Positions 2,507-38,844 are shown, numbered from the stretch's first letter. The stretch: 40,000 nucleotides of DNA from Candidatus Electronema sp. (GCA_026645415.1 JAPEVH010000061.1:1-40000), one strand, 5' to 3'. Translations and numbers: made by a program. The notes: generated from the letters alone by a model not told the origin.

Positions 2507-2571
2507 GTGGACTGTGGTAATTTTTTTGTTTTCTGCCTTTTGACAAAATAAGTCCTAGAACAATGCGTAAC

Positions 2572-2601
2572 GGCAGGCTACTTGCCTGCCTTTTTGTTTT
2601 T
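2572..2601 (+). terminator. Rho-independent terminator after the KAS gene
   Basis: A 7-bp GC-rich stem, GGCAGGC (2572-2578) / GCCTGCC (2584-2590), has a 5-nt loop and is followed by TTTTTGTTTTT (2591-2601). Confidence 0.6.
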
Positions 2602-2657
2602 CGCGCTATCTTCCTGTAACTTTATACTTTTAAGTTTCACCTTAAAGAAAATGATCA

Positions 2658-4805
2658 ATGAGAATTACAATAGCTTACAATCTTCGAACCGATGATACGG
2701 AAGCAACTGCTGAACTCTTAACTGAGGAGGACATTAGCAGAATATCCAATGCCATTAGTAGTCTTCAGCATACAGTAACAGTTGTTGAAGTCTCTGGTAA
2801 ACCAAATGATGTGATTGAACGCCTTATTGAAAGTGAACCTGATCTTGTATTTAATCTGGCAGAAGGGACTATCGGCAGTTCCCGTGAGGCATTTTACCCA
2901 GGATTGTACGAGCAAATGGGTATCCCCTTCACCGGCGGCAATGCATCGCTGCTTCATCTTAATCTTGATAAACATCTTGCTAAAACTGTTTTGGCATCAT
3001 ACGGAATCAGCGTTCCAAAGGGTATATTAATTATCGAGAAGGAACAAAAAATACCCGACAATTTACAATATCCGCTTATAATAAAACCAAATTCAGAAGG
3101 ATCAAGCAAAGGTATTACACAGAATTCTGTTGTTGAATCGCATGATCAGGCACAGGAAAGAATAAACAGTCTTTTAAAAAATTATCCAGCAGGGCTTGTG
3201 GTTGAAGAATTTATAGAAGGTCGTGAATTAAGCATTCCATTTCTTGAAAGCTTTCCTGGTAAGCTGCTTGACATCGTTGAACACACTTTTGACATGGATA
3301 CGATTGATGGCAAATATAATATCTATGACTACGACATGAAGCAAGGAGGAAAAGGGGCAGAAGCAATCAATGTTGTTTGTCCTGCCAAAATTACCCCTCA
3401 TGAAGAAAAAGCTGTCATAAAAATGGCCCGTGAGGTTTTTGATATCATGTCATGCCCTGACCTTGGGCGGGTAGATATTCGATTGCATACAAACGGGCAA
3501 CCATATTTTATTGAACTTAATCCCCTGCCAAGCCTGCATCCAAATGCCTCCCTTATGACGGCTGCTAGATCGCGCGGTCTCGAATTCAGAGATGTCATGA
3601 GGTTACTCATACGCTCTGCCGCTCGCCGATATGGTCTTGCAATCAAGCAACCCCAAAAAGGTGGATTTACATCAGGTACCTCACGGCCTACCGCCAGAGA
3701 ACTTGGAATTCAAATTGGCCGAATGAGTTCAGGGATCCATAATGCAATCACAGATGTTAAGGGCGTTCGGGTCGGCCATTTCACCAAGATAGAAGATAAC
3801 ATTTCAATTCCCGGAGGGACAGAAAAAAGCTCCATACGTACTGGTATTACAGCCATAATGCCTGCTGGCCAGGCTTATGCCAATCGGATTGCTGCTGGCG
3901 GCTTTATACTCAATGGTGTTGGAGAAATGGCTGGACTTACCCAAGTTTTTGAAACAGGTTGGCTGGAGACACCTATTCTTCTTACAAATTCACATTCAGT
4001 TGGTCGGGTTCATGCTGGCGTTGTCAATCATCTGCTTAAAAAATATCCGCATCTTGGAACCGAAACTGATGTGGTTCTGCCTGTAGTTGGTGAAGCCGAC
4101 GATTCTTTTCTCAACGATATACGAGTTGGATATTGCTCGGCACAAGATACCATTAAGGCTATAGAGTCGGCAGCATCAGGACCAGTAATGCAAGGCTCCA
4201 TTGGCGCTGGTACAGGTATGACCAGTTTTGATTTTGCCGGGGGAATAGGTACTTCTTCACGTATCCTAGACCTTTCGGGAAAGAATACATTTACAATTGG
4301 TGTGCTTGTCCTTTCAAACTTTGGCAAGATGCGAAATCTTACTATTGATGGAGGCGTTGTTGGCAGGCAATTAGACAAAGAATTCGATCCAACTATCCGT
4401 CGGGAAGTATCAGAAGGATCAATCATTGTTGTTGTTGCCACTGATATACCACTCATAAACAGTCAGCTTAATCGTGTGGCCAAACGAGCTGCTCTCGGAC
4501 TTGGCCGAACCGGTTCGTATGCTGCTTCAACCAGTGGCGAAATTGTTATTGCTTTTAGTACAGGTAACCGCAAGCCTCGAAAGATCGTTTCTGACAGCAG
4601 CTTTTTAACGTTAAAATGTATTTCCGATAATCATATAAATCTGGTGTATGAGGCTGTCGTAGAAGCAACTGAAGAGGCAGTAATTAATGCCATTTTTTGC
4701 TCTAATGGAATGAATGGGCGCAAACAACGCTGGTGCCCACCTGTTCCGCAAGAACGAATCATTGAATTATTAAATAAAGGAAGAACAATTCATGAAAGTA
4801 ATTGA
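2658..4805 (+). CDS. Fusion protein: N-terminal D-Ala--D-Ala-ligase-family ATP-grasp domain plus C-terminal DmpA/peptidase-S58 (P1 family, Ntn-hydrolase-type aminopeptidase) domain
   Basis: 715 aa. Ddl-like motifs occupy aa 1-330: LAEGTIGSSREAFYPGLYEQMGIPFTGG, PLIIKPNSEGSSKG, EEFIEGRELSIPF, GRVDIRLHTNGQPYFIELNPLPS. DmpA-family motifs occupy aa ~345-700: NAITDVKGVRVGHFT, GSIGAGTGM, and EG|SIIVVVATDIPL, where Gly587/Ser588 (nt 4416-4421) is at the position of the DmpA autoprocessing site. Confidence 0.8.
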   Translation: MRITIAYNLRTDDTEATAELLTEEDISRISNAISSLQHTVTVVEVSGKPNDVIERLIESEPDLVFNLAEGTIGSSREAFYPGLYEQMGIPFTGGNASLLHLNLDKHLAKTVLASYGISVPKGILIIEKEQKIPDNLQYPLIIKPNSEGSSKGITQNSVVESHDQAQERINSLLKNYPAGLVVEEFIEGRELSIPFLESFPGKLLDIVEHTFDMDTIDGKYNIYDYDMKQGGKGAEAINVVCPAKITPHEEKAVIKMAREVFDIMSCPDLGRVDIRLHTNGQPYFIELNPLPSLHPNASLMTAARSRGLEFRDVMRLLIRSAARRYGLAIKQPQKGGFTSGTSRPTARELGIQIGRMSSGIHNAITDVKGVRVGHFTKIEDNISIPGGTEKSSIRTGITAIMPAGQAYANRIAAGGFILNGVGEMAGLTQVFETGWLETPILLTNSHSVGRVHAGVVNHLLKKYPHLGTETDVVLPVVGEADDSFLNDIRVGYCSAQDTIKAIESAASGPVMQGSIGAGTGMTSFDFAGGIGTSSRILDLSGKNTFTIGVLVLSNFGKMRNLTIDGGVVGRQLDKEFDPTIRREVSEGSIIVVVATDIPLINSQLNRVAKRAALGLGRTGSYAASTSGEIVIAFSTGNRKPRKIVSDSSFLTLKCISDNHINLVYEAVVEATEEAVINAIFCSNGMNGRKQRWCPPVPQERIIELLNKGRTIHESN

Positions 4806-5802
4806 GAAATATAACGACAGTCTGCATAACCCCTATTGGAAGTATCAGCTTGGACCAGAAGCCTATGAGGTGAAAGATACGCCAAAGCGCGTTGAATCTA
4901 TCAAGAAGTCGCTTCACTCTGATGAGCAGTTTCAATTTCTTACTGCAAAACCCTTTCCAGAACGATTCATCACTCGCCTGCATCCCTATCACGATTATAT
5001 TAAGAACACAGCATTGTCTTTGCAAAACGATGAAGAGGAATTCTATCCCGATCTTTTTCCCGGCGAGGGTGCCCATCTTAGGAAGAAATCTGATTCACCA
5101 CTCTGGGGCGGAATCTGGTGTACAGATGCGGTAACACCCATTAAAAGAAAAACCTATGAAGTAGCGCGGGCCTCTGCTGAAACGGCCTTGACAGGTGCTG
5201 AATTGATTCGAGATGGCCTTGAAAAAACGGTATATGCCCTGTGCAGACCTTCCGGGCATCATGCAGGGCCGCGTGTATTTGGCGGCTACTGCTACTTTAA
5301 CAATGTGGCTACAGCGGCCGAGTATCTATTACCTGAAGGTAAAGTAGCAATAGTAGATATAGATTATCACCATGGAAACGGAACGCAGGAGTTTTTTGAT
5401 GAGATAAAATCTGTATTTACCGCATCTATTCATGGTGCCCCTGATGATGAATATCCGTATTTTTGGGGCTATGCCGACGAAAAAGGCAAAGGCCAGGCTG
5501 TCGGGACAAATTATAATGAGCCGTTACCCAAAGGTACACAACTGGAACAATACAGCGCAGCCTTAGATCGTATTTTTTCTGAAATTCGTAAGTTTAATCC
5601 TGCATACCTTATTATTGCCGCCGGTTTTGACACTCATGAAATGGATCCGATAGGTGGTTTTAAACTTCGCACGGAAGATTACTTTGCAATAGGCAAACAA
5701 TTTCAGTCTCTGGGAATACCCACATTGGTATGCCAAGAAGGTGGTTATAACATTGATGTTCTTGGAGAGTGTGTGAAGAATTTTCTTCTTGGACTGATAT
5801 AA
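4792..5802 (+). CDS. Histone-deacetylase-superfamily amidohydrolase (acetylpolyamine amidohydrolase / AcuC-like)
   Basis: 336 aa with the full catalytic set: RPSGHHAG, DIDYHHGNGTQ, AAGFDTHEMDP, QEGGY. AAGGAAG lies 8 nt upstream of the ATG. The start overlaps the upstream gene by 14 nt. Confidence 0.85.
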   Translation: MKVIEKYNDSLHNPYWKYQLGPEAYEVKDTPKRVESIKKSLHSDEQFQFLTAKPFPERFITRLHPYHDYIKNTALSLQNDEEEFYPDLFPGEGAHLRKKSDSPLWGGIWCTDAVTPIKRKTYEVARASAETALTGAELIRDGLEKTVYALCRPSGHHAGPRVFGGYCYFNNVATAAEYLLPEGKVAIVDIDYHHGNGTQEFFDEIKSVFTASIHGAPDDEYPYFWGYADEKGKGQAVGTNYNEPLPKGTQLEQYSAALDRIFSEIRKFNPAYLIIAAGFDTHEMDPIGGFKLRTEDYFAIGKQFQSLGIPTLVCQEGGYNIDVLGECVKNFLLGLI

Positions 5803-5920
5803 CAACATGATATGGCGCAGGTATTTTCAATGACGAAACAGTGAACAAAGCTCATGTAATTTATTGTATTTTTTAATTATACTGATTAACAACGTATTTT
5901 TTTGCTGAGGAGCAAGAAGC

Positions 5921-6172
5921 ATGACCCGTGATGACATTAAAGAAGTAATCCTTGAAATTATTAAGGATATAGATGAAGAGGCTGAGTTTAGCGATCTTGA
6001 TGACGACAAGCCACTCCGTGATCAACTTGATCTTGACTCTATGGATTTCCTCGACATTGTTATGGAGCTACGCAAACGTTACAAGCTCCAAATCCCAGAG
6101 GAGGATTATCCGCAGCTTGCCACTCTGATGAGCTGCGTCAACTACCTTGAACCCAAGCTCAAGGATGCCTGA
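5921..6172 (+). CDS. Stand-alone acyl/aminoacyl carrier protein (phosphopantetheine-attachment type)
   Basis: 83 aa and acidic. The carrier-protein serine motif is QLDLDSMDFLDIVMEL. GAGGAG precedes the ATG. It differs from canonical AcpP (DSLD). Confidence 0.8.
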   Translation: MTRDDIKEVILEIIKDIDEEAEFSDLDDDKPLRDQLDLDSMDFLDIVMELRKRYKLQIPEEDYPQLATLMSCVNYLEPKLKDA

Positions 6173-6247: not shown

Positions 6248-7624
6248 ATGGCTGACTATCAGCTCATCATTATTGGCGGCGGGCTGGCTGGCCTAGCCGC
6301 CGGTATTCGCGCCGCGCGCTTTGGCCTCAAACCACTGATTATCGAACAACACAGCCTGCCTGGTGGCCTGAATTCTTACTATTTCCGCCAAGGCCATTTG
6401 CTGGAAACAGGCTTACATGCAATGACTAACTTTGCTCCGCCCGGAGTAAAGCACGCGCCATTGAATCGCCTTTTTCGTCAGCTCCAGCTCTCTCGCAAAG
6501 AGTTCGTCACCCATGAGCAGCTTGAGTCGGAGGTATTTTTTCCCCAAGCCAGTCTTCGTTTCTCTAACAATCTTGACTTGCTCTACGAGGAAATCGCGGC
6601 GCGCTTCCCAATGTCTATTGACCGATTTCGAGCCGTGGTCAAAGAGGTAAAGGCATATAATCCTTTTGCCGAGGTGCCTTGGCGTTCCGCCCGAACCTTC
6701 CTTCGCAGCCGTCTCGGTGAACCTTTGCTTGAAGACATGCTGCTCCTGCCGTTGATGGTTTATGGCAATGCCGAAGAAGACGATATGGATCTGGGCCAGT
6801 TTGCGATTATGTTCCAAGCGGTGTTTCTGGAAGGCTTTTTCCGCCCCAAAGGCACGATCAAGGATTTGCTGGAACTGCTGCTGGCTCAGTACCGTCACTT
6901 TGGTGGCGAAATTCGCTTTCGTAGTTCTGTGACGCAAATTCTCAGCATTGGTGATCGCGTTCAAGGTATCCGCCTGCAAAATGGCGAAGAGCTACTTGCT
7001 GATGCAGTGCTATCGACTGCAGGAATTCCTGGCACCGCTGAAATGAGCGGCTGGTCGCTCGAAGAGAGTCGTTATATTGGTAAAATGAGCTTTATGGAGA
7101 CCATCTATCTGCTGCCAGAACTGAGTCTGCCGCCGGAACATAGGGCTAAAACCATCATCTTTTATAATCTGAACAACGAGTTGGTTTATCATCGCCCGAC
7201 TGAACCCATTGATTCTTCATGGGGAGTTATTTGCTTTCCCGGTAATTTTCATGATTTACCAAAAAACAGCCCTGTGCAGGTACGAGTGACGAATGCCGCC
7301 AACTACGACCACTGGCAGCAGATCACACCAGAAGAATATCTTCAGCTCAAGGAAAAATGTGGTCAGCAAACGTCCACCGCAGTGAGTAAAATTCTTGGAG
7401 ACTACAATCAAAATGCAGTCTTTCACGATAGCTTCACTCCGACCACGATTGAGCGTTATACTGGTAAACGAGCCGGTGCGGTTTATGGTAGCCCAGTGAA
7501 AATCAAAAGTGGCAAAACCCCTTGGAAAAATTTGTTTATTGCTGGTACTGATCAAGGCTATCTTGGTATTGTCGGGGCAATGTTGAGCGGCGTGACTATT
7601 GTCAATCAGCATCTGCTGAGGTGA
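6248..7624 (+). CDS. FAD/NAD(P)-dependent oxidoreductase, phytoene-desaturase (CrtI/COG1233)-like
   Basis: 458 aa. The N-terminal Rossmann dinucleotide motif is IIIGGGLAGLAAGIRAARFG...IEQHSLPGG. The C-terminal FIAGTDQGYLGIVGAMLSG is typical of the amine-oxidase/CrtI fold. Confidence 0.75.
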   Translation: MADYQLIIIGGGLAGLAAGIRAARFGLKPLIIEQHSLPGGLNSYYFRQGHLLETGLHAMTNFAPPGVKHAPLNRLFRQLQLSRKEFVTHEQLESEVFFPQASLRFSNNLDLLYEEIAARFPMSIDRFRAVVKEVKAYNPFAEVPWRSARTFLRSRLGEPLLEDMLLLPLMVYGNAEEDDMDLGQFAIMFQAVFLEGFFRPKGTIKDLLELLLAQYRHFGGEIRFRSSVTQILSIGDRVQGIRLQNGEELLADAVLSTAGIPGTAEMSGWSLEESRYIGKMSFMETIYLLPELSLPPEHRAKTIIFYNLNNELVYHRPTEPIDSSWGVICFPGNFHDLPKNSPVQVRVTNAANYDHWQQITPEEYLQLKEKCGQQTSTAVSKILGDYNQNAVFHDSFTPTTIERYTGKRAGAVYGSPVKIKSGKTPWKNLFIAGTDQGYLGIVGAMLSGVTIVNQHLLR

Positions 7625-7636
7625 GTTGATTGCGAC

Positions 7637-7867
7637 AAGTGTGCTTAGGCCGATAGGGGACCGAGAAAATTGGGGAACGGTACTTCTTGCTGCCTCTGTA
7701 GCCATTGCGGTAATTTTATTGCGTTGCATCAGTCTTCGATTGATTTCACCAAGCAATGGAAAGGAGGTGTTTATGAAGAAAACATTATTCTTTAGTGCTA
7801 TCTTTGAAACAACATAGGCTGTCGGAGTCAGCATAGTTGCCGGACACCTCTCGGCCTAAGCGCACTT
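7637..7867. repeat. 17-bp inverted repeat pair (7637-7653 / 7851-7867) enclosing ~197 nt of intergenic sequence
   Basis: AAGTGTGCTTAGGCCGA pairs with the reverse complement of TCGGCCTAAGCGCACTT. There is one mismatch, which would be a G-U pair in + strand RNA. The right arm is followed by a run of T (to 7872). Confidence 0.5.
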
Positions 7868-7878
7868 TTTTTGTGATC

Positions 7879-8250
7879 ATGGAATACAACGAAATAGCAA
7901 AGGCATGTGAAGGCTTGAGCTACAGGGATAAATTCCGTCTTGCGCAATTCCTTATTCAAATGGCGAGAAAGGAAGAGGAACTTCAGAATCCGCAGAGCAG
8001 AATCGGTGTCAGTAAAGATGAAAACTGCAAAGATACTGCCGTTTCTGAAAGCAATTCGATAGAATATGTTATGGAACGGATTGGCAAGCTGCGGCCCGGC
8101 AAAAAGAAAACTCTGCTGAATTCAATTCAAGCAATGTATCAATTCCAAGGGGGTATTTCTGAAAAAGATCAGGAGACGATTATTGCTGAACTGCAAGAGA
8201 GGAAATTTTTGCGAATCGAATCGGAGAACCGAGTTGTTTACTTGCGATAA
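7879..8250 (+). CDS. Hypothetical protein (123 aa from ATG 7879; the ORF track extends to a TTG at 7837)
   Basis: Open frame with no recognisable motif and no clear SD. It is tightly followed by the next gene (2-nt gap). Confidence 0.45.
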   Translation: MEYNEIAKACEGLSYRDKFRLAQFLIQMARKEEELQNPQSRIGVSKDENCKDTAVSESNSIEYVMERIGKLRPGKKKTLLNSIQAMYQFQGGISEKDQETIIAELQERKFLRIESENRVVYLR

Positions 8251-8252
8251 AA

Positions 8253-8933
8253 ATGACAGGAAAAGTCATGCGTAGTCAAGGAACGCTGACCTCTTGGAAT
8301 GACGAAAGAGGATTTGGTTTTATTGCTCCTGATGATGGCAGCAGACAAGTTTTTGTTCACATCAACGCATTCAATAATCGTGGTCTGCGGCCAGAGATCA
8401 ACCAATTGCTGCGCTATACTTTGTCTTCCGACAGCAAGGGACGGCCATGTGCAGAGAATGTTTTATTTGCTGACGAGCGGCGCAGACGTGGCATTGGATC
8501 GTTCGCTGTTGCATTGCTGTTTTTTGCAGTTCTTGCTGTTGCATCTTTTCATCTGAATAAAATTCCTCGCTTGATTTTTTGGTTGTATGTCTTTGTCAGC
8601 CTACTTTCATTTCTTATGTATGCAAAAGACAAATCAGCAGCAAAGAAAGGAAGCTGGCGCACTCCAGAAAGCACCCTGCATCTGCTTTCGCTGTTCTGCG
8701 GCTGGCCGGGCGCATTGATTGCCCAGCAGATCTTGCGGCATAAATCAAAAAAGCAATCATTCCGTTTCGTATTCTGGATAACCGTTTTGCTGAACTGCGC
8801 CGCATTCGTATTGCTGTTCATTCCAGAAGTGTCTGTTGAAATGCAATATTGGCTTGATGTCAAACTAAAATTCTGGATAAGCAACACGGCGAAGCCGCTT
8901 GTTGTCAGCTTGTTGAATTTGTTTGAAAAGTGA
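8253..8933 (+). CDS. Cold-shock-domain / DUF1294 membrane protein
   Basis: The N-terminus has CSD RNP motifs (GTLTSWNDERGFGFIAPDDGSRQVFVHINAF). The C-terminus has hydrophobic helices and the DUF1294-type motif YAKDKSAAKKGSWRTPESTLHLLSLFCGWPGALIAQQILRHKSKK. Confidence 0.8.
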   Translation: MTGKVMRSQGTLTSWNDERGFGFIAPDDGSRQVFVHINAFNNRGLRPEINQLLRYTLSSDSKGRPCAENVLFADERRRRGIGSFAVALLFFAVLAVASFHLNKIPRLIFWLYVFVSLLSFLMYAKDKSAAKKGSWRTPESTLHLLSLFCGWPGALIAQQILRHKSKKQSFRFVFWITVLLNCAAFVLLFIPEVSVEMQYWLDVKLKFWISNTAKPLVVSLLNLFEK

Positions 8934-8945
8934 TTTAATTTCTAT

Positions 8946-9563
8946 ATGCCCTCCAAAAATGCACAGACGAATTTGAACGAAAATGACCTGCTTCACGCGG
9001 TATTTGATGCGCTGCCTTCGTTGATCTTTGTGGTTGATCGGGACGTGCGAATCCAAGAATACAATGCGGCAGCGGCTGAGTTACTCCAAAGTAACCGGGA
9101 AGAAGTGCTCCAACGACGGGCTGGTGAAGTGCTGCACTGCATTCATACAACCAGTGAGCGAGAGAGCTGCGGTAAATCTCTAGCCTGTAAAGACTGTGTT
9201 ATCAAACATTCCGTTCTCAAAGCCTTTCTTGGTAACCGGGTTGTCCGTCATCGAGCAAAAATAGAAATTCGCCGAACAAATTCTAAAATAGAGATGTTTG
9301 CACTGGTTACTGTCTCGCCTTTTTCTTTTACAGGTAATCAACATGCGCTGCTGGTCATTGAAGATATTAACGATATCGCTGACCTGTACAAAACAATTTA
9401 TATCTGTCCGATCTGTGGAAAAATGCAGGATGAAGATAAGACATGGATGCGGATTGAAGCCTATTTCAAAAACTGCTGGGATGTAGACTGCTCGCACAAC
9501 TACTGCCCAGACTGCTTCCAGAACGAGCTGGATAAACTGAGAGCAGAGAAAAAAAGCAAGTAG
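8946..9563 (+). CDS. Stand-alone PAS-domain protein with Cys-rich zinc-ribbon-like C-terminus
   Basis: 205 aa with a PAS-like N-terminus (LLHAVFDALPSLIFVVDRDVRIQEYNAAAAELL). A Cys/His cluster lies inside the PAS core (HCIH...C...CKDC). The C-terminus reads CPICGKMQDEDKTWMRIEAYF...CSHNYCPDC. Confidence 0.55.
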   Translation: MPSKNAQTNLNENDLLHAVFDALPSLIFVVDRDVRIQEYNAAAAELLQSNREEVLQRRAGEVLHCIHTTSERESCGKSLACKDCVIKHSVLKAFLGNRVVRHRAKIEIRRTNSKIEMFALVTVSPFSFTGNQHALLVIEDINDIADLYKTIYICPICGKMQDEDKTWMRIEAYFKNCWDVDCSHNYCPDCFQNELDKLRAEKKSK

Positions 9564-9611
9564 CCTCACTGCTTCCCTGATTAAAATATTTAAGTATATA
9601 GAGATAGAATC

Positions 9612-11018
9612 ATGGCTTTTACCCCTTTTGACAAGGTTCAGGATACGTACGACATCGTTGTTATTGGCTCCGGTCTTGGTGGGCTAACCGCTGCCAATCG
9701 GCTGGCTCAGTGCGGCCATCGCATTCTTCTACTAGAGCAGCACCACCACCTTGGTGGTTTAGCAGCGTGGTTCAAACGTGGCGGGCATACGTTTGATGTT
9801 TCCCTGCATGGTTTTCCGCATGGCATGGTTAAAACCTGTAAGAAATATTGGTCAAAAGCAATCTACAACTCCATAGTTCAGCTCAAGAATATTGTTTTTG
9901 ATAACCCGCAGTTCACGCTGACCACAACGTTTTCTAAAGATGATTTTTCCCGCATTCTGCACGAGCAATTCAAGATTGAGCGTAGCGTAGTCGATGATTT
10001 TTTCAATACAGTCAGGGCGATGAATTTTTATGACGACCAGAGCATGACCACCCGTGAGCTGTTTGAAAAGTTCTTTCCGGGTCGCTCTGATGTGCATCGT
10101 CTGCTGATGGAGCCAATCACTTATGCCAACGGTTCGACTTTAGATGAACCGGCTATTACTTATGGGATTGTTTTTTCAAATTTTATGAGCAAGGGTGTGT
10201 TTACCTTTGAAGGCGGCACAGATAAGCTGATTGCCATGATGGCGGATGAGCTGCAAAAAAATGGCGTGACTATCTGCACAGGCGCAAAGGCAGAGCGGGT
10301 TCTGGTAGATAAAGGTAAAGTGCGGGGCGTGCTTGTCAATGGTCGGGAAATTGCAACCAAGGCTGTTGTTTCCAATTCCGGCATCACCAACACCATTGAT
10401 CAGCTTGCGGGCCGCGAGGCATTCAGTGATGATTTTCTCAGTCGTTTTGATAAAGTGGTAGTGAATAACTCTTCTAGCCAAGTCTATTTCGGCATCCGTA
10501 AGGGTGAATTTTTCCCGGATGTAGGCGATCTGCTTTTCACCTCCACTGCGGAGAAGTTCTCTTCTGAGAAAATGCGGCGCAAGGATACGCAAAGCCGCAC
10601 CTTTTCCGTTTATTATCCCAAGACCAGACCTGAAAAACCTGATTATACGGTAGTGGCTTCCATGAATGCCAACTACGATGACTGGGCGGGGCTGGATCCG
10701 CAGATCTACAAACAAGAAAAAGAGGCAATGGCGGAACGTTGTCTATTGGATTTGGAACGCTACATTCCCGGTATTCGCACCAAGATTGACACCGTGGAAA
10801 CAGCCACACCCAAGACCTTTCACCGCTACACCTTGCATACAAGAGGAACTTCTTTTGGCACAAAATTTGAAGGGTTGGATATTTCCCGAACGATTTTCAA
10901 AGAAGTGGGCGGACTATTTCATGTTGGCTCGGTTGGCATCATCATGAGCGGCTGGCTGGGAGCTATCAACTACGGCGTAATTGTTGCCAATGATGCGGAT
11001 GCGTATGTGCGGACGTGA
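9612..11018 (+). CDS. FAD/NAD(P)-dependent oxidoreductase, phytoene-desaturase (CrtI/COG1233)-like; second paralogue
   Basis: 468 aa. The dinucleotide motif is IVVIGSGLGGLTAANRLAQCGHRILLLEQHHHLGG. The overall length and C-terminal G-rich segment (HVGSVGIIMSGWLGAINYG) resemble those of the 6248-7624 product. Confidence 0.75.
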   Translation: MAFTPFDKVQDTYDIVVIGSGLGGLTAANRLAQCGHRILLLEQHHHLGGLAAWFKRGGHTFDVSLHGFPHGMVKTCKKYWSKAIYNSIVQLKNIVFDNPQFTLTTTFSKDDFSRILHEQFKIERSVVDDFFNTVRAMNFYDDQSMTTRELFEKFFPGRSDVHRLLMEPITYANGSTLDEPAITYGIVFSNFMSKGVFTFEGGTDKLIAMMADELQKNGVTICTGAKAERVLVDKGKVRGVLVNGREIATKAVVSNSGITNTIDQLAGREAFSDDFLSRFDKVVVNNSSSQVYFGIRKGEFFPDVGDLLFTSTAEKFSSEKMRRKDTQSRTFSVYYPKTRPEKPDYTVVASMNANYDDWAGLDPQIYKQEKEAMAERCLLDLERYIPGIRTKIDTVETATPKTFHRYTLHTRGTSFGTKFEGLDISRTIFKEVGGLFHVGSVGIIMSGWLGAINYGVIVANDADAYVRT

Positions 11019-11099
11019 GTATTACTGTTCCCGCGCTGGAGCCTGGAATGTGTGATACTTCAACTTATAGCGACAACAACGTTATACCCTGAAGTTGCG

Positions 11100-12653
11100 T
11101 CAGCTAATAAGCAAACTCTCCCCTTCCATCTCCTCTGGCTGCTTCAGCCCCAACAGGTGTAACAGAGTCGGAGCAATATCTTTGAGTGCGCCACTGCTTT
11201 TCAAGGTGCAGCCTTTGTGCTTGTCGCTGACTAAGATCAGCGGCACTGGATTTAGGGTGTGGGCGGTATGCGGCTGACCGGTTTTTTGGTTGAGCATCAT
11301 CTCGGCATTGCCGTGATCAGCCGTAATCAACAAAATACCACCCAGCTCACGCAAGCGTTTGGCAATTCGACCAAGGCAATGATCCACGGTTTCACAGGCT
11401 TTAACTGCTGCCTCTAGCACCCCGGTATGGCCAACCATATCACCATTAGCAAAGTTAAGAATCACCAAATCATAAGGCGTACCTGCGGCCTCCTGCTCGG
11501 CAAGTGCAGCTAAAAGTCGGTCAGTTACTTCCTCTGCGCTCATAGCAGGTTTGAGATCATAAGTAGCCACATCACGCGGTGACTCAATTAAAATGCGGTC
11601 TTCTCCCAAGAAGGGCACCTCGTTGCCACCATTAAAGAAGTAGGTGACATGGGCGTACTTCTCGGTCTCAGCAATCCGTAGCTGGTGTAACCCAGCCCGG
11701 CTTACCTCTTCACCGAGAATACGATTGAGACTAACCGGTGGGAAGGCGATGGGAAAGGAGAAATCCGCCTCATATTCGGTCATGGTCACCAGCTCCAGCA
11801 GCTTGGGCCTGTTATTGACCGCAAAGCCTTTGAAATCAGCATCAGAAAAGGCATGGCACAGTTCACGTACTCGGTCGGCCCGGAAATTAAAAAAGACTAC
11901 CGCATCGCCATCTTGTATCCTGCCTTCCTCAGCAATAATAGTTGGCTGAATAAATTCGTCTGTCTCGCCTCGGTTGTAGGCAGCCTCAATTGCTTGAATT
12001 GGCTCATCTGCTGTCAGTCCCTGCCCGCCGACTATTGCCTGCCAAGCCTTCTCCACCCGATCCCAGCGAGTATCGCGATCCATAGCCCAGTAGCGACCAG
12101 ATACTGTTGCCACTTGGCCGCAGCCGACTTGCTGGACGATTTCCATAAGCTGCTGCATATAGCCTACGCCACTTTTGGGCGGCGTATCACGACCATCCAT
12201 GAAGCAGTGAATCTTGGCTTCGATGCTGCGCGCCGCAGCCATTTGCAGTAACGCAGCGAGGTGACTGATATGAGAATGCACCCCGCCATCCGAAAGCAGA
12301 CCACAGAAGTGTACTCGCGTTCCAGCGGCTTTTACCTTGTCTAATACCGCTGTCAACACTGGATTTGTGGCAAATTCGCCCAGCTCAATCGCCCGGCTGA
12401 TGCGGGTGTAATCCTGATAGACGACCCGACCAGCTCCAATATTCAAATGCCCAACCTCAGAATTACCCATTTGCCCTTCTGGTAGACCAACCGCACCGTT
12501 GTGAGCCACCAAGGTAGTGTAAGGATACTCTGCCGTCCATTTATCCATGTTTGGCGTGTTGGCAACATAGACTGCATTGGTTGGAGAAGGCGGAGCAATG
12601 CCCCAGCCATCTAAAATTGCCAGCATTACAGGTCGTCCAGCAGCAGCCATCAT
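11100..12653 (-). CDS. gpmI: 2,3-bisphosphoglycerate-independent phosphoglycerate mutase
   Basis: 517 aa. Motifs: LAILDGWGIAP, the catalytic Ser region GNSEVGHLNIGAGRVV, FMDGRDTPP, and C-terminal ITADHGNAE. Confidence 0.95.
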   Translation of the reverse strand: MMAAAGRPVMLAILDGWGIAPPSPTNAVYVANTPNMDKWTAEYPYTTLVAHNGAVGLPEGQMGNSEVGHLNIGAGRVVYQDYTRISRAIELGEFATNPVLTAVLDKVKAAGTRVHFCGLLSDGGVHSHISHLAALLQMAAARSIEAKIHCFMDGRDTPPKSGVGYMQQLMEIVQQVGCGQVATVSGRYWAMDRDTRWDRVEKAWQAIVGGQGLTADEPIQAIEAAYNRGETDEFIQPTIIAEEGRIQDGDAVVFFNFRADRVRELCHAFSDADFKGFAVNNRPKLLELVTMTEYEADFSFPIAFPPVSLNRILGEEVSRAGLHQLRIAETEKYAHVTYFFNGGNEVPFLGEDRILIESPRDVATYDLKPAMSAEEVTDRLLAALAEQEAAGTPYDLVILNFANGDMVGHTGVLEAAVKACETVDHCLGRIAKRLRELGGILLITADHGNAEMMLNQKTGQPHTAHTLNPVPLILVSDKHKGCTLKSSGALKDIAPTLLHLLGLKQPEEMEGESLLIS

Positions 12654-13051
12654 TCGCCCTCCTGCTCCTCAATGCCTAATTCCGGCAAGCCTAATCTAGG
12701 CGCATCGTGCCACAAGCCTTCCAGATCATAAAACGCCCGCTGATCTTTGTAGAAAATATGAGCAACCACATCACCAAAATCAAGCAAGACCCAGAGTCCT
12801 TCCTGAAGTCCTTCAGCATGTCTACTGCTAATCCGCTTGGAGTTTAGCTCTGCTTCTATGGCTTCGGCTAAGGCTTGAACGTGCCGCGTGGAACGACCGC
12901 TCATGATGAGAAAATAATCAGCAAACGAGGACTGGCCGCGCACATCTAGGATGGTGAGTTCTTCAGCTTGGGTGTCCAAGGCTATGTGAGCGCAGATAGC
13001 AGACAGTTCGAGCGGGCTGTGTTGTCGATATTCTTTTTTCAGTTGTTGCAT
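12650..13051 (-). CDS. rsfS: Ribosome silencing factor RsfS (iojap family)
   Basis: 133 aa with the signature SFADYFLIMSGRSTRHVQALAEAI and HIFYKDQRAFYDLEGLW. Its stop overlaps the gpmI start (ATGATG/TGA at 12648-12653). Confidence 0.9.
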   Translation of the reverse strand: MQQLKKEYRQHSPLELSAICAHIALDTQAEELTILDVRGQSSFADYFLIMSGRSTRHVQALAEAIEAELNSKRISSRHAEGLQEGLWVLLDFGDVVAHIFYKDQRAFYDLEGLWHDAPRLGLPELGIEEQEGE

Positions 13052-13231: not shown

Positions 13232-13699
13232 TTATTGTTCGTTAATGGCACGGCGACAGAGGTTTACAATGATTGTAGTTAATATTGCTACTTGTACAAA
13301 ATTATCTACAGTTGACATCAAGCTAAATCTCATGACCCAAAAACCATTAGCCTTTGAAAGGCTTAAAATGGCTAAGAAAAAAGTCACAACAAGATTCGAT
13401 ATTGATAGATAATAAATACAAAAAAATACATCGAGATACCCTTTTTTTTTATACTTTTTGAAAGTTACAGAGCCAGCAAAAGAAAAGAGTATTGTAATTA
13501 CAGCAGATAAAAAACCAAGCATTGTAAACGAAAATGTCGCTATAATTACAGCAAGATTGCTTTTTTGGGCTGCTATACTCATTGAGTAACATGGATATAT
13601 TTCAACGAGTTTGTGATACAGACAATGAAAGATTGGACCAGGTAGCAACGTCATTAAACCGTACAATATCGTCAGGGGTATCTTTCTTGAAGGATTCAT
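13232..13699 (-). CDS. Small multi-pass membrane protein, orphan (3 TM from ATG 13582; 4 TM if the 13699 start is used)
   Basis: Hydrophobic segments: LAVIIATFSFTMLGFLSAVITILFSF, VFFCIYYLSISNLVVTFFLAILSL, VDNFVQVAILTTIIVNL. The longest ORF overlaps the upstream gene by 98 nt. The ATG at 13582 lies 19 nt after that gene's stop. The sequence is very AT-rich with no SD. Confidence 0.5.
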   Translation of the reverse strand: MNPSRKIPLTILYGLMTLLPGPIFHCLYHKLVEIYPCYSMSIAAQKSNLAVIIATFSFTMLGFLSAVITILFSFAGSVTFKKYKKKGYLDVFFCIYYLSISNLVVTFFLAILSLSKANGFWVMRFSLMSTVDNFVQVAILTTIIVNLCRRAINEQ

Positions 13700-14537
13700 C
13701 TGACCTGTATTCCTTTAGTTTGTCTATCAGGATTTGATTGCCGGTTGCTTTATTCTCCAACAGTGCTGGAATTTCGTCTTCTTGACTTTTATCGATATGG
13801 TTAGAAACAGCTCCTTTTCCAACCAAGTAAATGTCTAACAGTTGCGATGATACTTCGTCTTTACATTTCAGTATCATTTTTTCAACACCTTCATCGGAAA
13901 TTTTATCCAAAAGTTTTCCACTAACTTCTTTTATATTTTTACCTCTTTTTGGTTTAATAGTTATTTCTATGCTTTTAAGATCATGGCAGTCTTCCGTGTT
14001 TACGGATATCACATTTAAAAGATCTTGAAAAAAAGAATTCTCTTTTGATATTTCAATACTTGTTTTTCCGATAATACTATTAAATATAAACGCCTCGTCT
14101 TTTGTTGCTTGATGCAGTATCGCTCTCGCTTTAAATCTCCAAATTTCAATCCCTATTTTCTTGAAAAGATCATCAATATATTCCGCAAAAACATTCACCT
14201 TTGGTGCCAGCACTGTCGATGCAATTCCAAAATAATCTTCTTTAACAAGAAGATAAGAGGCAAAACTTACCTGTTCTTTTTGAGAAAGAAATTCACTTAT
14301 TGATATATCTGCCGGATTTATTTTTTTTATTAACTCTTTGTTTCTTGTCATAAGAAAAAGAAATATATCACCTTTAAGGTGAACCAGATATATATGTTCA
14401 TCCTTTTTCATAAATTTGTTTTTAAACTCTGGGTTATCTACTTTACAGAAAATTTTTAAAAAAGATCTCATGTCGAAAAGAAATTTTTGTTCATTATCAG
14501 CATTTAACAGATAGTATCCAAAGTACGTTACTTTCAT
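13602..14537 (-). CDS. Hypothetical 311-aa soluble protein with no recognisable family
   Basis: This is a long uninterrupted ORF in ~26% G+C DNA, where stop codons would be frequent by chance. It is Lys/Glu/Ile/Phe-rich. I see no P-loop, GxSxG, HNH or Rossmann motif. Confidence 0.6.
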   Translation of the reverse strand: MKVTYFGYYLLNADNEQKFLFDMRSFLKIFCKVDNPEFKNKFMKKDEHIYLVHLKGDIFLFLMTRNKELIKKINPADISISEFLSQKEQVSFASYLLVKEDYFGIASTVLAPKVNVFAEYIDDLFKKIGIEIWRFKARAILHQATKDEAFIFNSIIGKTSIEISKENSFFQDLLNVISVNTEDCHDLKSIEITIKPKRGKNIKEVSGKLLDKISDEGVEKMILKCKDEVSSQLLDIYLVGKGAVSNHIDKSQEDEIPALLENKATGNQILIDKLKEYRSDESFKKDTPDDIVRFNDVATWSNLSLSVSQTR

Positions 14538-14645: not shown

Positions 14646-17111
14646 TTATTCGCCTTGTTGATCTTTGCCCCGCGCTTTTCGTGGTGGAAACTCAAACGTC
14701 ACTTTGCCCTTGCCGTCTATGAGGAGATAGGCATCAAAAGGCCGCTTTCTTTTAGAAATAAAGCCGTTGATCAGCTCAGTCTTTCCCTCTGTGAGAAGCT
14801 GACGGATATGCTCTGGACTAATAGCGCGCTCCAGAATGATCTTGCCGATCCGCAGACCATTTTTCTGGTCACCTGCTAAGGCAGCTTCCGACATATAGGC
14901 CATTGGTGTTTCATAGACCTCTGTTTGATCAATCGGGGAACGACCAAGCGATTTCTGTTCTTTGATTGCCTCCAAATCCAAGTTGTCTGTTGAATCAGCA
15001 AATTGGAAAGAAACCTTGGAATCTTTGATCAACACTGAGGCCGTAAAGGGCTTGCCTTTTTTGGAGCGGAAATCCGTGTACGGCCCGACGGTCTCGCCCT
15101 TGATCAGGCAGACAATTTCCTCCTCTTCCATAATCCGCCCGCCAAGAATTTTGCGGATAATCAGTTTCCGGTCTTCGGATTCATACGCCGTGGTGGTCTC
15201 AAAAAAGCGTTTGCCTTCAACTGGCGAGAAAGATGCTTCTTGGCGAGCCGGGCCACCTGCCTTGACCTTTTCCACGATGGTGGAGGTCTGTTGGCGGATT
15301 TCCTGCATAAACTGCTCGCGGGTCATGCTGCCCTTGATGATCTGATTGAGCTTAAACTCCCATTCGCCGGTCAGTTCTGGCGAAGCCAGCACATCTATTT
15401 TCTGCGCTTCGAGCAAGGCAAGCAACTCAAAGCCCTTGCCGGTTGGCACCAATTCTTTCTGCTCACGTACCATATATTTTTCTGAGAGCAGCTTTTCAAT
15501 GATGGCTGCCCGGGTGGCCGGTGTACCAAGGCCGCGTTCCTTCATCGCCTCTGCCAGTTCCTCATCCTCGACCAGCTTACCAGAGTGCTCCATTGCTGAG
15601 AGCAGGGTAGCTTCATTGAAACGGGGCGGCGGCTTTGTTTCTAGCTTTTTCTGCTCAATCTCAGCGCATAAAACTGCTGTTTTCGCAGGCAGAGCTTCCA
15701 GCGTCTTGGCATCACCTGCACCCGCTGTTGCGCCATAAACCGCTTTCCAGCCCGGCTCAATCAGAATTTTACCTTCCGTGAGAAAGGTCTCGCCTTCAAC
15801 AATAGATAAACGCCGGGTCTGATCAAAAATTGCTGCTGGAAAGAAGACCGCAATAAACCGCTGCACGATCATCTGATAAATCTTCAGCTCGGCCTCGTTC
15901 AGGCTGCTCGGCAAATTAGCCGTGGGAATGAGGGCAAAGTGGTCGCTAATCTTCTTGTTGTTAAAGACCCGCTTGTTTTTCGCATTTTTTTCAGGGAAGC
16001 CTTGAGCCAAGGCTTCGGCAGCAAAGCGGCCATGCTGCCACTGCTGCTGCTTAGTCAGCACCTCTTTTACTTGGGGTAGATAATCTTCAGGCAGGCAAGA
16101 GCTTTCTGTGCGCGGATAGGTGATCAGCTTGTGCTGCTCGTACAGAGCTTGGGCTAAACCAAGCGTATTTTTTGCCGAAAAACCAAAACGGGAGTTCGCT
16201 TCGCGCTGCAAGGTGGTTAGGTCGTAGAGCGCGGACGGTGCTTGACTGGTCTTCTTGCTCTCCTCCTCAACTTTTGCCTTTTTGCCCGCGCATTTTGCCG
16301 CGATCAGCGTGGCTTGCTGTTCATCCCAGATACGCTTCTTATTGCCGTCCGGGTCATCTTGGTCTTTCTTAAAGGTGGCATCAATCCACACGGCCTGATA
16401 CGCAACCGAGCCACACTGGAACTGGGCATGTAATTCCCAATAATCCTTAGAAACAAAGGCCCGCCGCTCTGCCTCGCGCTTGACCAGAAGGGAGAGAGTC
16501 GGGGTCTGTACTCTGCCGCAAGGCGTTTTGCGGAAACCACCGTGGCGCGAGTTGTAGCAGGTCAAGGCACGGGTGGCATTGATGCCGATCAGCCAATCAG
16601 CCTCAGAACGGCACAGGGCAGCGTGTTCAAGCGGCACCATTTCCTGATCCTCGCGCAGATGGCGCAGGCCAGACTTGATTGCGTCCAAGGTCATGGATTG
16701 AAGCCAGAGCCTGCGTACGGTTTTACCCTGCGGCGGCTGAGAAAAAATTTGCCGGAAGATGTATTTAAAAATCAGCTCGCCCTCGCGACCCGCGTCGCAG
16801 GCGTTGATAATCACATCCACCTCTTTTCGCCGGAACAGCTTACTCAGCGCGGTAAATTGGGCTTTAGTTTCCGGTAAAACAGTGAGGGGAAAGACCTCCG
16901 GCAGGATGGGCAAATTCTCCAAATCCCATTTGTGAAAAATCGGGTCGATTTCCTCTGGAAAGCCGATAGTAACTAAATGGCCAATGGCGTAGGAAACAAT
17001 ATAGTCGTTGCCTTCAAAATGAGTCTTTTGTCGGTCGAAATTGCCAGGTAAGGCTTTGACAATGTCAGCGGCTACACTGGGTTTTTCGGCGATGATGAGG
17101 GTCTTTGGCAT
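14646..17111 (-). CDS. topB: DNA topoisomerase III (type IA) with two C-terminal Toprim_Crpt-type repeats
   Basis: 821 aa. The Toprim N-terminus is TLIIAEKPSVAADI, and the active-site Tyr context is HKLITYPRTESSCLP. The C-terminal duplicated module is GPYTDFRSKKGKPFTASVLIKDSKVSFQF / INGFISKRKRPFDAYLLIDGKGKVTFEF. Confidence 0.9.
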   Translation of the reverse strand: MPKTLIIAEKPSVAADIVKALPGNFDRQKTHFEGNDYIVSYAIGHLVTIGFPEEIDPIFHKWDLENLPILPEVFPLTVLPETKAQFTALSKLFRRKEVDVIINACDAGREGELIFKYIFRQIFSQPPQGKTVRRLWLQSMTLDAIKSGLRHLREDQEMVPLEHAALCRSEADWLIGINATRALTCYNSRHGGFRKTPCGRVQTPTLSLLVKREAERRAFVSKDYWELHAQFQCGSVAYQAVWIDATFKKDQDDPDGNKKRIWDEQQATLIAAKCAGKKAKVEEESKKTSQAPSALYDLTTLQREANSRFGFSAKNTLGLAQALYEQHKLITYPRTESSCLPEDYLPQVKEVLTKQQQWQHGRFAAEALAQGFPEKNAKNKRVFNNKKISDHFALIPTANLPSSLNEAELKIYQMIVQRFIAVFFPAAIFDQTRRLSIVEGETFLTEGKILIEPGWKAVYGATAGAGDAKTLEALPAKTAVLCAEIEQKKLETKPPPRFNEATLLSAMEHSGKLVEDEELAEAMKERGLGTPATRAAIIEKLLSEKYMVREQKELVPTGKGFELLALLEAQKIDVLASPELTGEWEFKLNQIIKGSMTREQFMQEIRQQTSTIVEKVKAGGPARQEASFSPVEGKRFFETTTAYESEDRKLIIRKILGGRIMEEEEIVCLIKGETVGPYTDFRSKKGKPFTASVLIKDSKVSFQFADSTDNLDLEAIKEQKSLGRSPIDQTEVYETPMAYMSEAALAGDQKNGLRIGKIILERAISPEHIRQLLTEGKTELINGFISKRKRPFDAYLLIDGKGKVTFEFPPRKARGKDQQGE

Positions 17112-30857: not shown

Positions 30858-30859
30858 AG

Positions 30860-31663: not shown

Positions 31664-31669
31664 AACTTA

Positions 31670-32623: not shown

Positions 32624-32632
32624 TGAAGCGTA

Positions 32633-33991: not shown

Positions 33992-33993
33992 AA

Positions 33994-34983: not shown

Positions 34984-34986
34984 AAC

Positions 34987-36003: not shown

Positions 36004-36009
36004 ACGAAA

Positions 36010-38038: not shown

Positions 38039-38047
38039 TACAAAGAA

Positions 38048-38794: not shown

Positions 38795-38844
38795 AGAATA
38801 ACTCAGAATAGCTGTCCAATATCAGAAAGGTTATTCTATAACAA

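Follow-up and report, generated by a model that had tools for sequence, protein, structure and literature searches.

A two-gene cassette predicted to make, break and deacetylate a small amide was found at positions 2658-5802 (plus strand) of a 40,000-nt stretch of Candidatus Electronema sp. DNA (JAPEVH010000061.1:1-40000; hereafter the window). Its first gene encodes a fusion of a Ddl-like ATP-grasp ligase domain and an S58 (DmpA-type) aminopeptidase domain, and its second gene encodes an HDAC-fold deacetylase related to the acetylpolyamine amidohydrolases (APAHs). The pair is a self-contained, horizontally mobile metabolic cassette inserted between unrelated fatty-acid genes, its two genes stand together in nearly all loci in which the fusion was found, and the only gene families that recur beside it are AblA and AblB, the enzyme pair that produces the compatible solute Nε-acetyl-β-lysine (NeABL). 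Judged from sequence and gene-neighbourhood comparisons, the chances that the cassette acts on β-lysine- or NeABL-derived compounds appear to us evenly balanced; NeABL itself would be the most likely target, and any particular product is rated much lower. The features of the cassette, given by their coordinates in the window, are listed below.

2658-4805, plus strand: fusion gene (715 aa), Ddl-like ATP-grasp ligase joined to an S58/DmpA-type aminopeptidase predicted to be self-processing (open reading frame (ORF), Pfam, NCBIfam and PDB matches)
2658-3632, plus strand: ATP-grasp ligase domain, aa 1-325 (alignment to E. coli DdlB)
3633-3692, plus strand: variable linker between both domains, aa 326-345 (no consensus columns in the family alignment; the match to S58 structures begins at aa 340-346)
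3693-4778, plus strand: S58 (DmpA/BapA-type) N-terminal nucleophile (Ntn) aminopeptidase domain, aa 346-707 (Peptidase_S58, 5e-105)
4416-4421, plus strand: codons of Gly587/Ser588, predicted autoproteolytic site and nucleophile (aligned with DmpA Gly249/Ser250)
4792-5802, plus strand: HDAC-fold zinc deacetylase (336 aa), APAH-like, of a distinct specificity subfamily, predicted to be an ε-N-deacetylase (Hist_deacetyl, 9e-66)
4792-4805, plus strand: 14-nt overlap of the fusion and deacetylase genes, translational coupling (ORF coordinates; overlapping junction in 57 of 95 loci)
2572-2600, plus strand: intrinsic terminator of the KAS gene, left border of the cassette (terminator scan; stem at 2572-2590, GGCAGGC-TACTT-GCCTGCC, plus a T-run)
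2601-5894, plus strand: inserted two-gene cassette of about 3.3 kb between the KAS (1259-2506) and ACP (5921-6172) genes (empty-site comparison, junction alignment and G+C content at third codon positions (GC3))

A Ddl-like ATP-grasp domain fused to an S58 aminopeptidase domain

A first-pass annotation of this DNA had described a single 715-aa ORF joining an ATP-grasp domain of the D-Ala:D-Ala ligase family to a complete S58/DmpA domain, and profile searches confirmed this architecture, with Dala_Dala_lig_C (Pfam) matching aa 128-318 (1.6e-30) and Peptidase_S58 (PF03576) matching aa 362-691 over profile positions 1-305 of 307 (351.7 bits against a threshold of 23.9). Among solved structures, the S58 half matched P. 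horikoshii 2drh (4.5e-84, about 50% identical), DmpA 1b65 (2e-70) and BapA 3n2w (1e-59). Gly587/Ser588, which had been placed at the autoprocessing position of DmpA, aligned exactly with Gly249/Ser250 of PDB 1b65, and E479, N554 and S626/G627/E628 corresponded to E144, N218 and S288/G289/D290 of DmpA. All of these residues were invariant in the alignment of 14 diverse members from which conservation in the family was read. The fusion is predicted to cleave itself at G587/S588 and to use Ser588 as nucleophile. The S58 enzymes require a free N-terminal amine, remove the first residue and are known to accept N-terminal β-amino acids, and the Glu that binds the free amine is conserved in the fusion as E479. 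DmpA acts on N-terminal D-Ala amides, and the S58 β-aminopeptidases DmpA and BapA are used in biocatalysis to make as well as to cleave β-peptides; to our knowledge, the natural role and substrate of S58 β-aminopeptidases are still unclear. An AlphaFold model of the fusion, which reached a mean pLDDT of 55 with values below 50 in the S58 half (shallow alignment), was not used.

In the reaction of Ddl-type ATP-grasp enzymes, a carboxylate is first activated to its acyl-phosphate and then joined to an amine, which yields a dipeptide with a free N-terminus. The N-terminal half of the fusion matched many Ddl structures in the PDB search (about 1e-19), and the NCBIfam Ddl model PRK01372 aligned over aa 29-322, nearly its full length, with a score of 151.5 bits against a cut-off of 243. 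The TIGR01205 model gave 129.7 bits against a cut-off of 245.65, and all Van ligase models remained far below their cut-offs. When aligned to E. coli DdlB, with a reference sequence 100% identical to PDB 2dln, the ATP/Mg2+ and catalytic residues were found to be kept (K105, K143, S149/S150, E183, E190, K228, R271, D273, E286 and N288), and those that correspond to DdlB K97, K144, E180, K215, R255, D257, E270 and N272, i.e. K105, K143, E183, K228, R271, D273, E286 and N288, respectively, are invariant in the family. In contrast, DdlB Y216 and S281 are replaced by Q229 and A297, both replacements being invariant in the family. Of the D-Ala triad E15-S150-Y216, only S150 is kept (as S149), since Y216 is changed and the N-terminal domain cannot be aligned around E15. 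An identity as D-Ala:D-Ala ligase (EC 6.3.2.4) was rejected because the domain scored below all Ddl and Van cut-offs, because D-Ala residues are changed and because the gene lies in an accessory insertion. The 3.3-kb insertion is absent from the site in sister genomes, and the gene does not have the status of a core, vertically inherited cell-wall gene. The domain accordingly is no housekeeping cell-wall Ddl, and the refuting case of a bona fide Ddl that the first-pass annotation had named does not apply.

An APAH-like deacetylase with altered specificity residues

The ORFs 2658-4805 and 4792-5802 overlap by 14 nt, as had been reported. The second protein matched Hist_deacetyl (Pfam, 9e-66), and its best PDB matches were the bacterial APAHs 6phr (1.6e-63) and 3q9b (1.6e-61). 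The claim that every catalytic residue of the HDAC fold is retained was also borne out, since the H156/H157 dyad, the zinc ligands D191/H193/D280 and Y319, as well as the EGGY motif, were present in 69 of 69 relatives.

The residues that surround this catalytic set differ from those of APAH. In APAH, Glu117 forms a salt bridge with the N4 ammonium of the polyamine (PMC5454378). The equivalent position is V114 in the window protein and Val in 68 of the 69 subfamily members, and two residues before it APAH A115 is replaced by a new invariant Asp (D112). Furthermore, D163 is replaced by R161 (67/69), F286 by H282 (63/69), and the Ser-Pro-Gly stretch 121-123 by a basic patch at 118-120, in which position 120 is Lys or Arg in 60 of the 69 sequences. 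The motifs RPSGHH and PIG stand in place of RPPGHH and PIS of APAH, the gatekeeper Ile being kept (PIG for PIS); the roles in APAH of the RPPGHH and PIS motifs, of the gatekeeper Ile and of Glu106 at the end of the L2/polyamine-specificity loop have been described (PMC11532494). At the position of APAH E106 the two alignment methods disagree, phmmer pairing it with P103 and MAFFT with D101. These comparisons indicate that the deacetylase is APAH-like, with a predicted specificity class of its own.

The fusion and the deacetylase are inherited together across phyla

A search of 5.8 billion proteins retrieved more than 120 full-length relatives of the fusion (about 712-720 aa, 67-89% identity), and a scan with one genome per species located fusion relatives in 170 species. 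Altogether, more than 100 full-length relatives of 60-95% identity belong to at least 8 phyla; the source names in the protein search span Bacteroidota, Kiritimatiellia, Spirochaetes, Desulfobulbales, Acidobacteriota, Calditrichota, Fidelibacterota and Psychromonas. This breadth rules out a frameshift or assembly artefact, which would have turned the fusion into two genes and had been another concern of the first-pass annotation. In the one-genome-per-species scan, the closest relative (95%) was that of the cable bacterium Ca. Electronema halotolerans, which makes the source of the window a close relative of that species, and the nearest relatives otherwise were in other phyla. In a representative library at 50% identity the fused form accounted for approximately one cluster, nested in an ATP-grasp subfamily of 562 clusters (E<=1e-30) whose other members are for the most part tandem proteins of about 640-720 aa or single-domain proteins of about 320-350 aa. 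Because the fused form is essentially one cluster, the fusion represents a narrow clade under strong constraint, and this clade has passed from phylum to phylum.

Co-inheritance of the two genes was analyzed with full-length fusions of at least 60% identity that had room downstream, i.e. those of 68 species genomes and 28 metagenome contigs. An HDAC-fold gene was directly downstream in 67 of the 68 species genomes and in all 28 metagenome contigs (95/96), so that the conserved neighbourhood for which the first-pass annotation had proposed to look does exist, and the overlapping junction between both genes was common to 57 of these 95 loci. The identities of both proteins to the window copies co-varied across loci (r=0.94), and the genes around the pair were otherwise unrelated between loci.

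According to record titles, the carriers are mostly marine, brackish, soda-lake or hypersaline, and the cable bacteria with the gene are the saltwater Electrothrix and Ca. Electronema halotolerans. The best hits included no homologue with 80% identity or more from other Electronema, even though the same database contains the KAS orthologues of these genomes; this is suggestive of the absence of the pair from the other (freshwater) Electronema genomes. The pair was not found on viral contigs, and PLSDB contained no full-length fusion, only standalone S58 genes of at most 42% identity being retrieved from plasmids. Current database names are generic ('P1 family peptidase', 'D-alanine--D-alanine ligase', 'AcuC-like'). 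The literature search returned no paper joining ATP-grasp with an S58/P1 peptidase and HDAC, no paper joining ATP-grasp with acetyl-β-lysine or β-lysine, and no paper assigning the architecture a function, in line with the earlier statement that no characterised example was known. The parts of the cassette all come from known enzyme families and its maker/breaker logic has precedents, but the architecture itself is uncharacterised.

The cassette is an insertion between the KAS and ACP genes

The site occupied by the cassette was compared with the equivalent sites of other cable bacteria. In Electrothrix sp. YB6, which has the order alaS-KAS-ACP-FAD oxidoreductase, ACP directly follows KAS and the pair lies elsewhere on the chromosome; the KAS/ACP junction is filled by an unrelated 197-aa ORF in the freshwater Ca. 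Electronema aureum and by a BrnT toxin-antitoxin pair in another Electronema. In the junction alignment, homology of the flanks stopped at about 2601, right after the hairpin, and restarted at about 5895, at the ribosome-binding site of ACP. These empty or otherwise filled sites, together with the junction alignment, indicated that KAS, ACP and the oxidoreductase are bystanders. A functional link of the pair to the flanking KAS, ACP and FAD-oxidoreductase genes was rejected, because relatives keep alaS-KAS-ACP-FAD oxidoreductase without the pair.

Two points of the first-pass annotation needed revision in the light of this comparison. The terminator after which the block had been said to begin does exist, as a hairpin and T-run at 2572-2600, but it is KAS's own, since Ca. 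Electronema aureum and another Electronema, both without the pair at the site, retain the hairpin behind their KAS. The G+C values that had been cited for a low-G+C block (0.30, 0.483 and, for the upstream KAS, 0.667) are exact; nevertheless, the overall G+C of the pair (0.43) is near the window mean (0.453), and the outliers of the window are the unusually G+C-rich upstream alaS and KAS genes. Low overall G+C as a sign of foreign origin was therefore dropped. The GC3 of the pair, in contrast, is 0.32-0.37 versus 0.45-0.6 in its neighbours, and it is the GC3 and the empty-site comparison that support the insertion. No Rfam match, and hence no riboswitch or other RNA leader, was found anywhere in the 40-kb window.

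The KAS/ACP intergenic junction (window 2507-2657 and 5803-5920) is an insertion hot spot in cable bacteria; besides the fillings named above, it is empty in Electrothrix YB6, and both the window and Ca. E. halotolerans have the pair there. The hot-spot regions compared were the following.

L168: 8447-9040
L169: 8401-9392
L170: 8260-8379

Recurrent linkage to ablA/ablB and to KamA-family aminomutases

To find genes associated with the cassette, the ORFs flanking the pair in 80 species genomes were clustered without prior expectation. Besides the pair itself, only two neighbour families recurred, AblA (lysine 2,3-aminomutase; TIGR03820, 764-792 bits, equivalog cut-off 525) and AblB (β-lysine N-acetyltransferase; TIGR03827, 301-338 bits, equivalog cut-off 205), and no polyamine-synthesis or -transport gene was recurrent in 160 neighbourhoods. 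The adjoining ablA and ablB genes share the strand of the pair, are often no more than tens of bases away from it, and were seen in at least 5 phyla and with at least 5 gene orders.

Bacteroidales: ablA-ablB-fusion-deacetylase-SSF symporter
Psychromonas: fusion-deacetylase-ablA-ablB
Desulforhopalus and a related metagenome-assembled genome (MAG): ablB-fusion-deacetylase
Syntrophales: fusion-deacetylase-ablA
Lentisphaerales and a deltaproteobacterial MAG: ablA/ablB neighbours, an amino-acid ABC transporter being embedded
Verrucomicrobia: the pair preceded by ablA and ablB, which an SSF symporter gene separates
Desulfuromonadales: ablA-ablB-fusion and no deacetylase gene, a layout seen in L087

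Independent metagenome contigs (L089, L116, L130 and L147) also carried ablA/ablB beside the pair. Altogether, ablA or ablB was located within 6 kb in 11 of 102 full-length loci, and they were adjacent in 4 partial or divergent loci as well (about 15). Under a null in which every genome has one randomly placed ablAB operon, the binomial tail for 11 of 102 is 1e-11 to 1e-15. A 'kamA' hit in L085 was discounted as a distant KamA paralogue 6 kb away. In one locus (L014) the pair lies inside the canonical MarR-ablA-ablB-SSF operon of Bacteroidota. We dropped the pair as a regular part of the NeABL operon, because three sampled ablAB operons lack it; these operons indicated that the pair is accessory and, in some genomes, placed inside the operon, rather than belonging to core NeABL synthesis. 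The MarR-ablA-ablB-SSF operon is conserved in Bacteroidota (L171-L173, at about 7080-11330 in each; L014, 1825-8712), and its SSF symporter may take up lysine or recapture the solute.

A second link to 2,3-aminomutases came from a sister family (40-49% identity). In 13 of its loci, a tandem ATP-grasp gene and the S58 gene behind it are separate but overlap. These unfused but coupled genes support the partnership of ligase and peptidase. A KamA-family 2,3-aminomutase gene is immediately upstream in the sister-family loci L134, L137, L149 and L151, and some ATP-grasp-only relatives have one there as well; these aminomutases scored best as lysine 2,3-aminomutase, at 474-497 bits and hence just under the equivalog cut-off of 525. 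Uncharacterised tandem Ddl-like ATP-grasp proteins of about 660-740 aa, followed by an S58 gene or an amino-acid ABC transporter, were observed in the sister family at the positions given below. In L072 the tandem protein is directly upstream of a fusion without deacetylase, and L139 and L141 also have a GshB-like ATP-grasp gene nearby.

L072: 5797-7890
L140: 10001-13227
L152: 10001-15165

A possible role in the metabolism of β-lysine-derived amides

As to substrates, direction of flux and physiological role, we infer the following scheme. The ATP-grasp domain would convert a carboxylate into an acyl-phosphate and couple it to an amine, giving a dipeptide-like amide whose N-terminal residue may be β-lysyl or Nε-acetyl-β-lysyl, much as carnosine synthase makes β-Ala-His. 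The S58 domain would cut itself at G587/S588, whereupon Ser588 would remove or transfer the N-terminal β-aminoacyl residue, and a single polypeptide able to make and break the same bond would set the level of the conjugate. The co-translated HDAC-fold enzyme would strip the ε-N-acetyl group, i.e. the reverse of the AblB reaction. Of the two ends of the molecule, the ε-amine would in this way be served by AblB and the deacetylase and the β-amino acid by the ligase and the peptidase, a division that fits the gene content, with a KamA/ATP-grasp/S58 core in the sister family and with AblB and the deacetylase as additions. Physiologically, the cassette may serve to adjust or recover the β-lysine osmolyte pool in saline habitats. 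A more specific version, in which the cassette forms and cleaves an as yet undescribed, carnosine-like dipeptide or short oligomer of β-lysine or NeABL, cells under fluctuating salinity interconvert the monomer and a condensed reserve, and the deacetylase toggles the ε-acetyl group, is put forward tentatively and is in itself unlikely.

Precedents for the chemistry exist. Carnosine, a β-aminoacyl dipeptide, is made by an ATP-grasp ligase and cleaved by DmpA, BapA and BapF, and S58 enzymes hydrolyse N-terminal β-aminoacyl amides and also form them by reverse aminolysis (PMC9235088). With regard to the deacetylase, we reasoned that the distance from the β-ammonium of NeABL to its acetylated nitrogen spans the same number of atoms as that from N4 to N8 in N8-acetylspermidine, a likeness in spacing that would make an APAH-like fold suitable for NeABL. 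The loss of E117 and the gain of R161, K/R119-120 and H282 would fit a substrate that bears a carboxylate.

Several observations weigh against an action on β-lysine compounds. About 85% of the loci have no ablA/ablB in the flanks retrieved, there is no ablA or ablB in the 40-kb window, and all three Bacteroidota ablAB loci sampled from the AblB side were MarR-ablA-ablB-SSF without the pair. The genomes of cable bacteria have been reported to be without an osmolyte-biosynthesis pathway (PMC10030654), so that in this lineage the substrates of the cassette would have to be imported or be other compounds. It would seem futile for one operon to encode an acetyltransferase as well as a deacetylase, except where the acetyl group protects transiently or turnover is the aim, and little turnover of NeABL was found in methanogens (PMC1224877). 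The specificity arguments, moreover, rest on the alignments to APAH and DdlB.

Some of these points bear on the alternative that the cassette acts on another small amine or amide metabolite unrelated to β-lysine, e.g. another N-acetylated diamino acid, a compound with a β-alanyl or β-glutamyl group or a secondary metabolite that resembles a peptide, and that its adjacency to ablAB reflects co-location in salt-stress or variable regions rather than common substrates. Besides the many loci without ablAB, whose unrelated flanks are often toxin-antitoxin or variable regions, the sub-cut-off scores of the sister-family aminomutases, which leave their substrate uncertain, and the reported lack of osmolyte synthesis in cable bacteria would agree with it. 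Nevertheless, several phyla show the adjacency to ablAB, in various gene orders, on the same strand and in one case as an insertion inside the ablAB-SSF operon, and the 2,3-aminomutase link was seen independently in the sister family; we thus regard a different metabolite as somewhat unlikely, though well worth keeping in view. The first-pass annotation had instead suggested a synthetase/hydrolase pair controlling a small aminoacyl amide conjugate, possibly a D-alanyl one and perhaps carried by a deacetylated polyamine or amino sugar. Its general idea stands, insofar as a ligase and an opposing Ntn-type amidase, coupled to a deacetylase, would act on a small amine-containing amide. The proposed conjugate fared worse. 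A fusion that attaches D-alanyl (or other α-aminoacyl) groups to a polyamine or amino sugar and takes them off again, as an analogue of glutathionylspermidine synthetase/amidase (GspSA) and with an HDAC-fold APAH to free the amine, would agree with the closest solved relatives of the deacetylase being APAHs (1e-63), with its EGGY motif and gatekeeper Ile, with Ddl as the closest relatives of the ATP-grasp domain and with the activity of DmpA on D-Ala amides. However, determinants of both APAH and Ddl are lost (Val for E117 in 68/69 and a more basic tunnel region in the one; Y216 and S281 replaced, the E15 region unaligned and the Ddl cut-offs failed in the other), and it is ablA/ablB, not polyamine genes, that recur in the 160 neighbourhoods, which makes this explanation improbable.

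Two further explanations appear far less probable. A cell-wall set, in which a true D-Ala-D-Ala ligase and a D-aminopeptidase take part in the synthesis, recycling or remodelling of peptidoglycan precursors, is what a Ddl-family domain next to a DmpA-type 'D-aminopeptidase' domain might suggest at first sight; it is, however, the least credible of all, given a score of 151 against 243 bits, the changed substrate residues, an accessory insertion that is absent from the site in sister species still in need of peptidoglycan, the lack of recurrent murein genes nearby and a paired deacetylase without a role in D-Ala-D-Ala metabolism. An anti-phage or stress 'conflict' module might be suspected from the mobility of the pair and from its surroundings, often toxin-antitoxin and restriction-modification genes, since the pair in Electrothrix lies among methylases, an AAA_15/21 ATPase and RelE/MqsA genes and on a Kiritimatiellae contig beside ParE and VapBC, and from the BrnT toxin at the insertion site of the window in a relative. 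Nevertheless, neither protein had a PADLOC match, no defence family emerged from the neighbour clustering, none of the pairs was on a viral contig or plasmid, and the three domains are small-molecule amide-enzyme domains with intact active sites; we consider such a module very unlikely.

Should the β-lysine assignment be true, the cassette would provide the first concrete candidate enzymes for the turnover or conversion of NeABL, a widespread compatible solute for which our literature search found no downstream enzyme described. It would also offer the first physiological substrate for S58 β-aminopeptidases, pointed to by the ligase fusion and the aminomutase link, and it may then be a portable salt-adaptation trait and a marker among saline-sediment bacteria, including saltwater cable bacteria. 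Even if the substrate guess is wrong, an uncharacterised bifunctional maker/breaker with a deacetylase partner is present, mis-annotated, in at least 170 species.

Comparison with known systems

One of the closest parallels is the carnosine system, i.e. carnosine synthase (ATPGD1) and the S58 enzymes DmpA/BapA/BapF, where an ATP-grasp enzyme likewise makes the amide and an S58 enzyme removes the N-terminal β-residue. In contrast to that system, the cassette is bacterial, it has both activities in one polypeptide or in coupled genes, its ligase is Ddl-like rather than ATPGD1-like, its linkage is to β-lysine genes (ablA/ablB, KamA) and not to β-alanine, and a deacetylase partner is added. The E. 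coli enzyme GspSA resembles the fusion in that one polypeptide with an ATP-dependent amide ligase and a reversing amidase sets the level of a conjugate, which is probably how the cassette works too. However, in GspSA a CHAP cysteine amidase is N-terminal and the synthetase C-terminal, whereas the fusion has the opposite order, with a Ddl-like ATP-grasp domain and an S58 Ntn-serine amidase as the only domains that Pfam found, and the cassette lacks a glutathione/polyamine context; the likeness is only functional, and the fusion is not a member of that family.

At the level of single proteins, the deacetylase shares with the APAHs ('cluster 4' deacylases; 3q9b, 6phr, 9gkz) the fold, about 45-50% identity, the catalytic set, EGGY and the gatekeeper Ile, and differs from them by its near-invariant replacements E117 to Val, D163 to R161 and F286 to H282, by RPSGHH, PIG and the basic 118-120 patch, and by its location behind the fusion. 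Ddl/VanA is the closest family of the N-terminal half of the fusion, with the ATP/Mg2+ and acyl-phosphate residues kept, but the identity is 25%, the scores are below every cut-off, Y216 to Q and S281 to A are changed, the D-Ala1 site is unalignable and the gene is accessory. The AblA/AblB pathway, finally, is the only recurrent genomic partner of the cassette, and the deacetylase would reverse the AblB reaction; the cassette nonetheless lies outside the known pathway, and the sampled ablAB operons are without it.

Other features of the window

Upstream of the cassette, the C-terminal part of alaS (24-1262) and the FabF-like KAS gene (1259-2506) overlap by 4 nt and have a G+C of 0.55-0.61 and a GC3 of 0.61-0.70. 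The KAS protein scored 300 bits against the fabF equivalog cut-off of 494, and it is conserved across cable bacteria with a dedicated ACP and two CrtI/amine-oxidase-like flavoproteins (6248-7624 and 9612-11018). This KAS/ACP/flavoprotein set is an uncharacterised lipid or polyene-type cluster.

An overlapping RexA/RexB abortive-infection gene pair occupies 13232-14537 of the minus strand, between rsfS (12650-13051) and a topoisomerase gene (14646-17111). With a G+C of 0.32 versus the window mean of 0.45, it is probably a separate, horizontally acquired phage-exclusion module.

13602-14537, minus strand: RexA (Pfam 2e-53, PADLOC 6e-54)
13232-13699, minus strand: RexB (PADLOC 4e-26)

The region 29628-39765 (minus strand) contains low-GC3 genes (0.26-0.39), among them a glycosyltransferase, a methyltransferase, an Acyl_transf_3 gene and several without a Pfam match, and it looks like a surface-polysaccharide island whose composition is unlike that of the rest of the window. 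A gene at 8253-8933 encodes a 226-aa protein in which a cold-shock domain is fused to DUF1294, and it has the same position in the cable-bacteria loci L168-L170.

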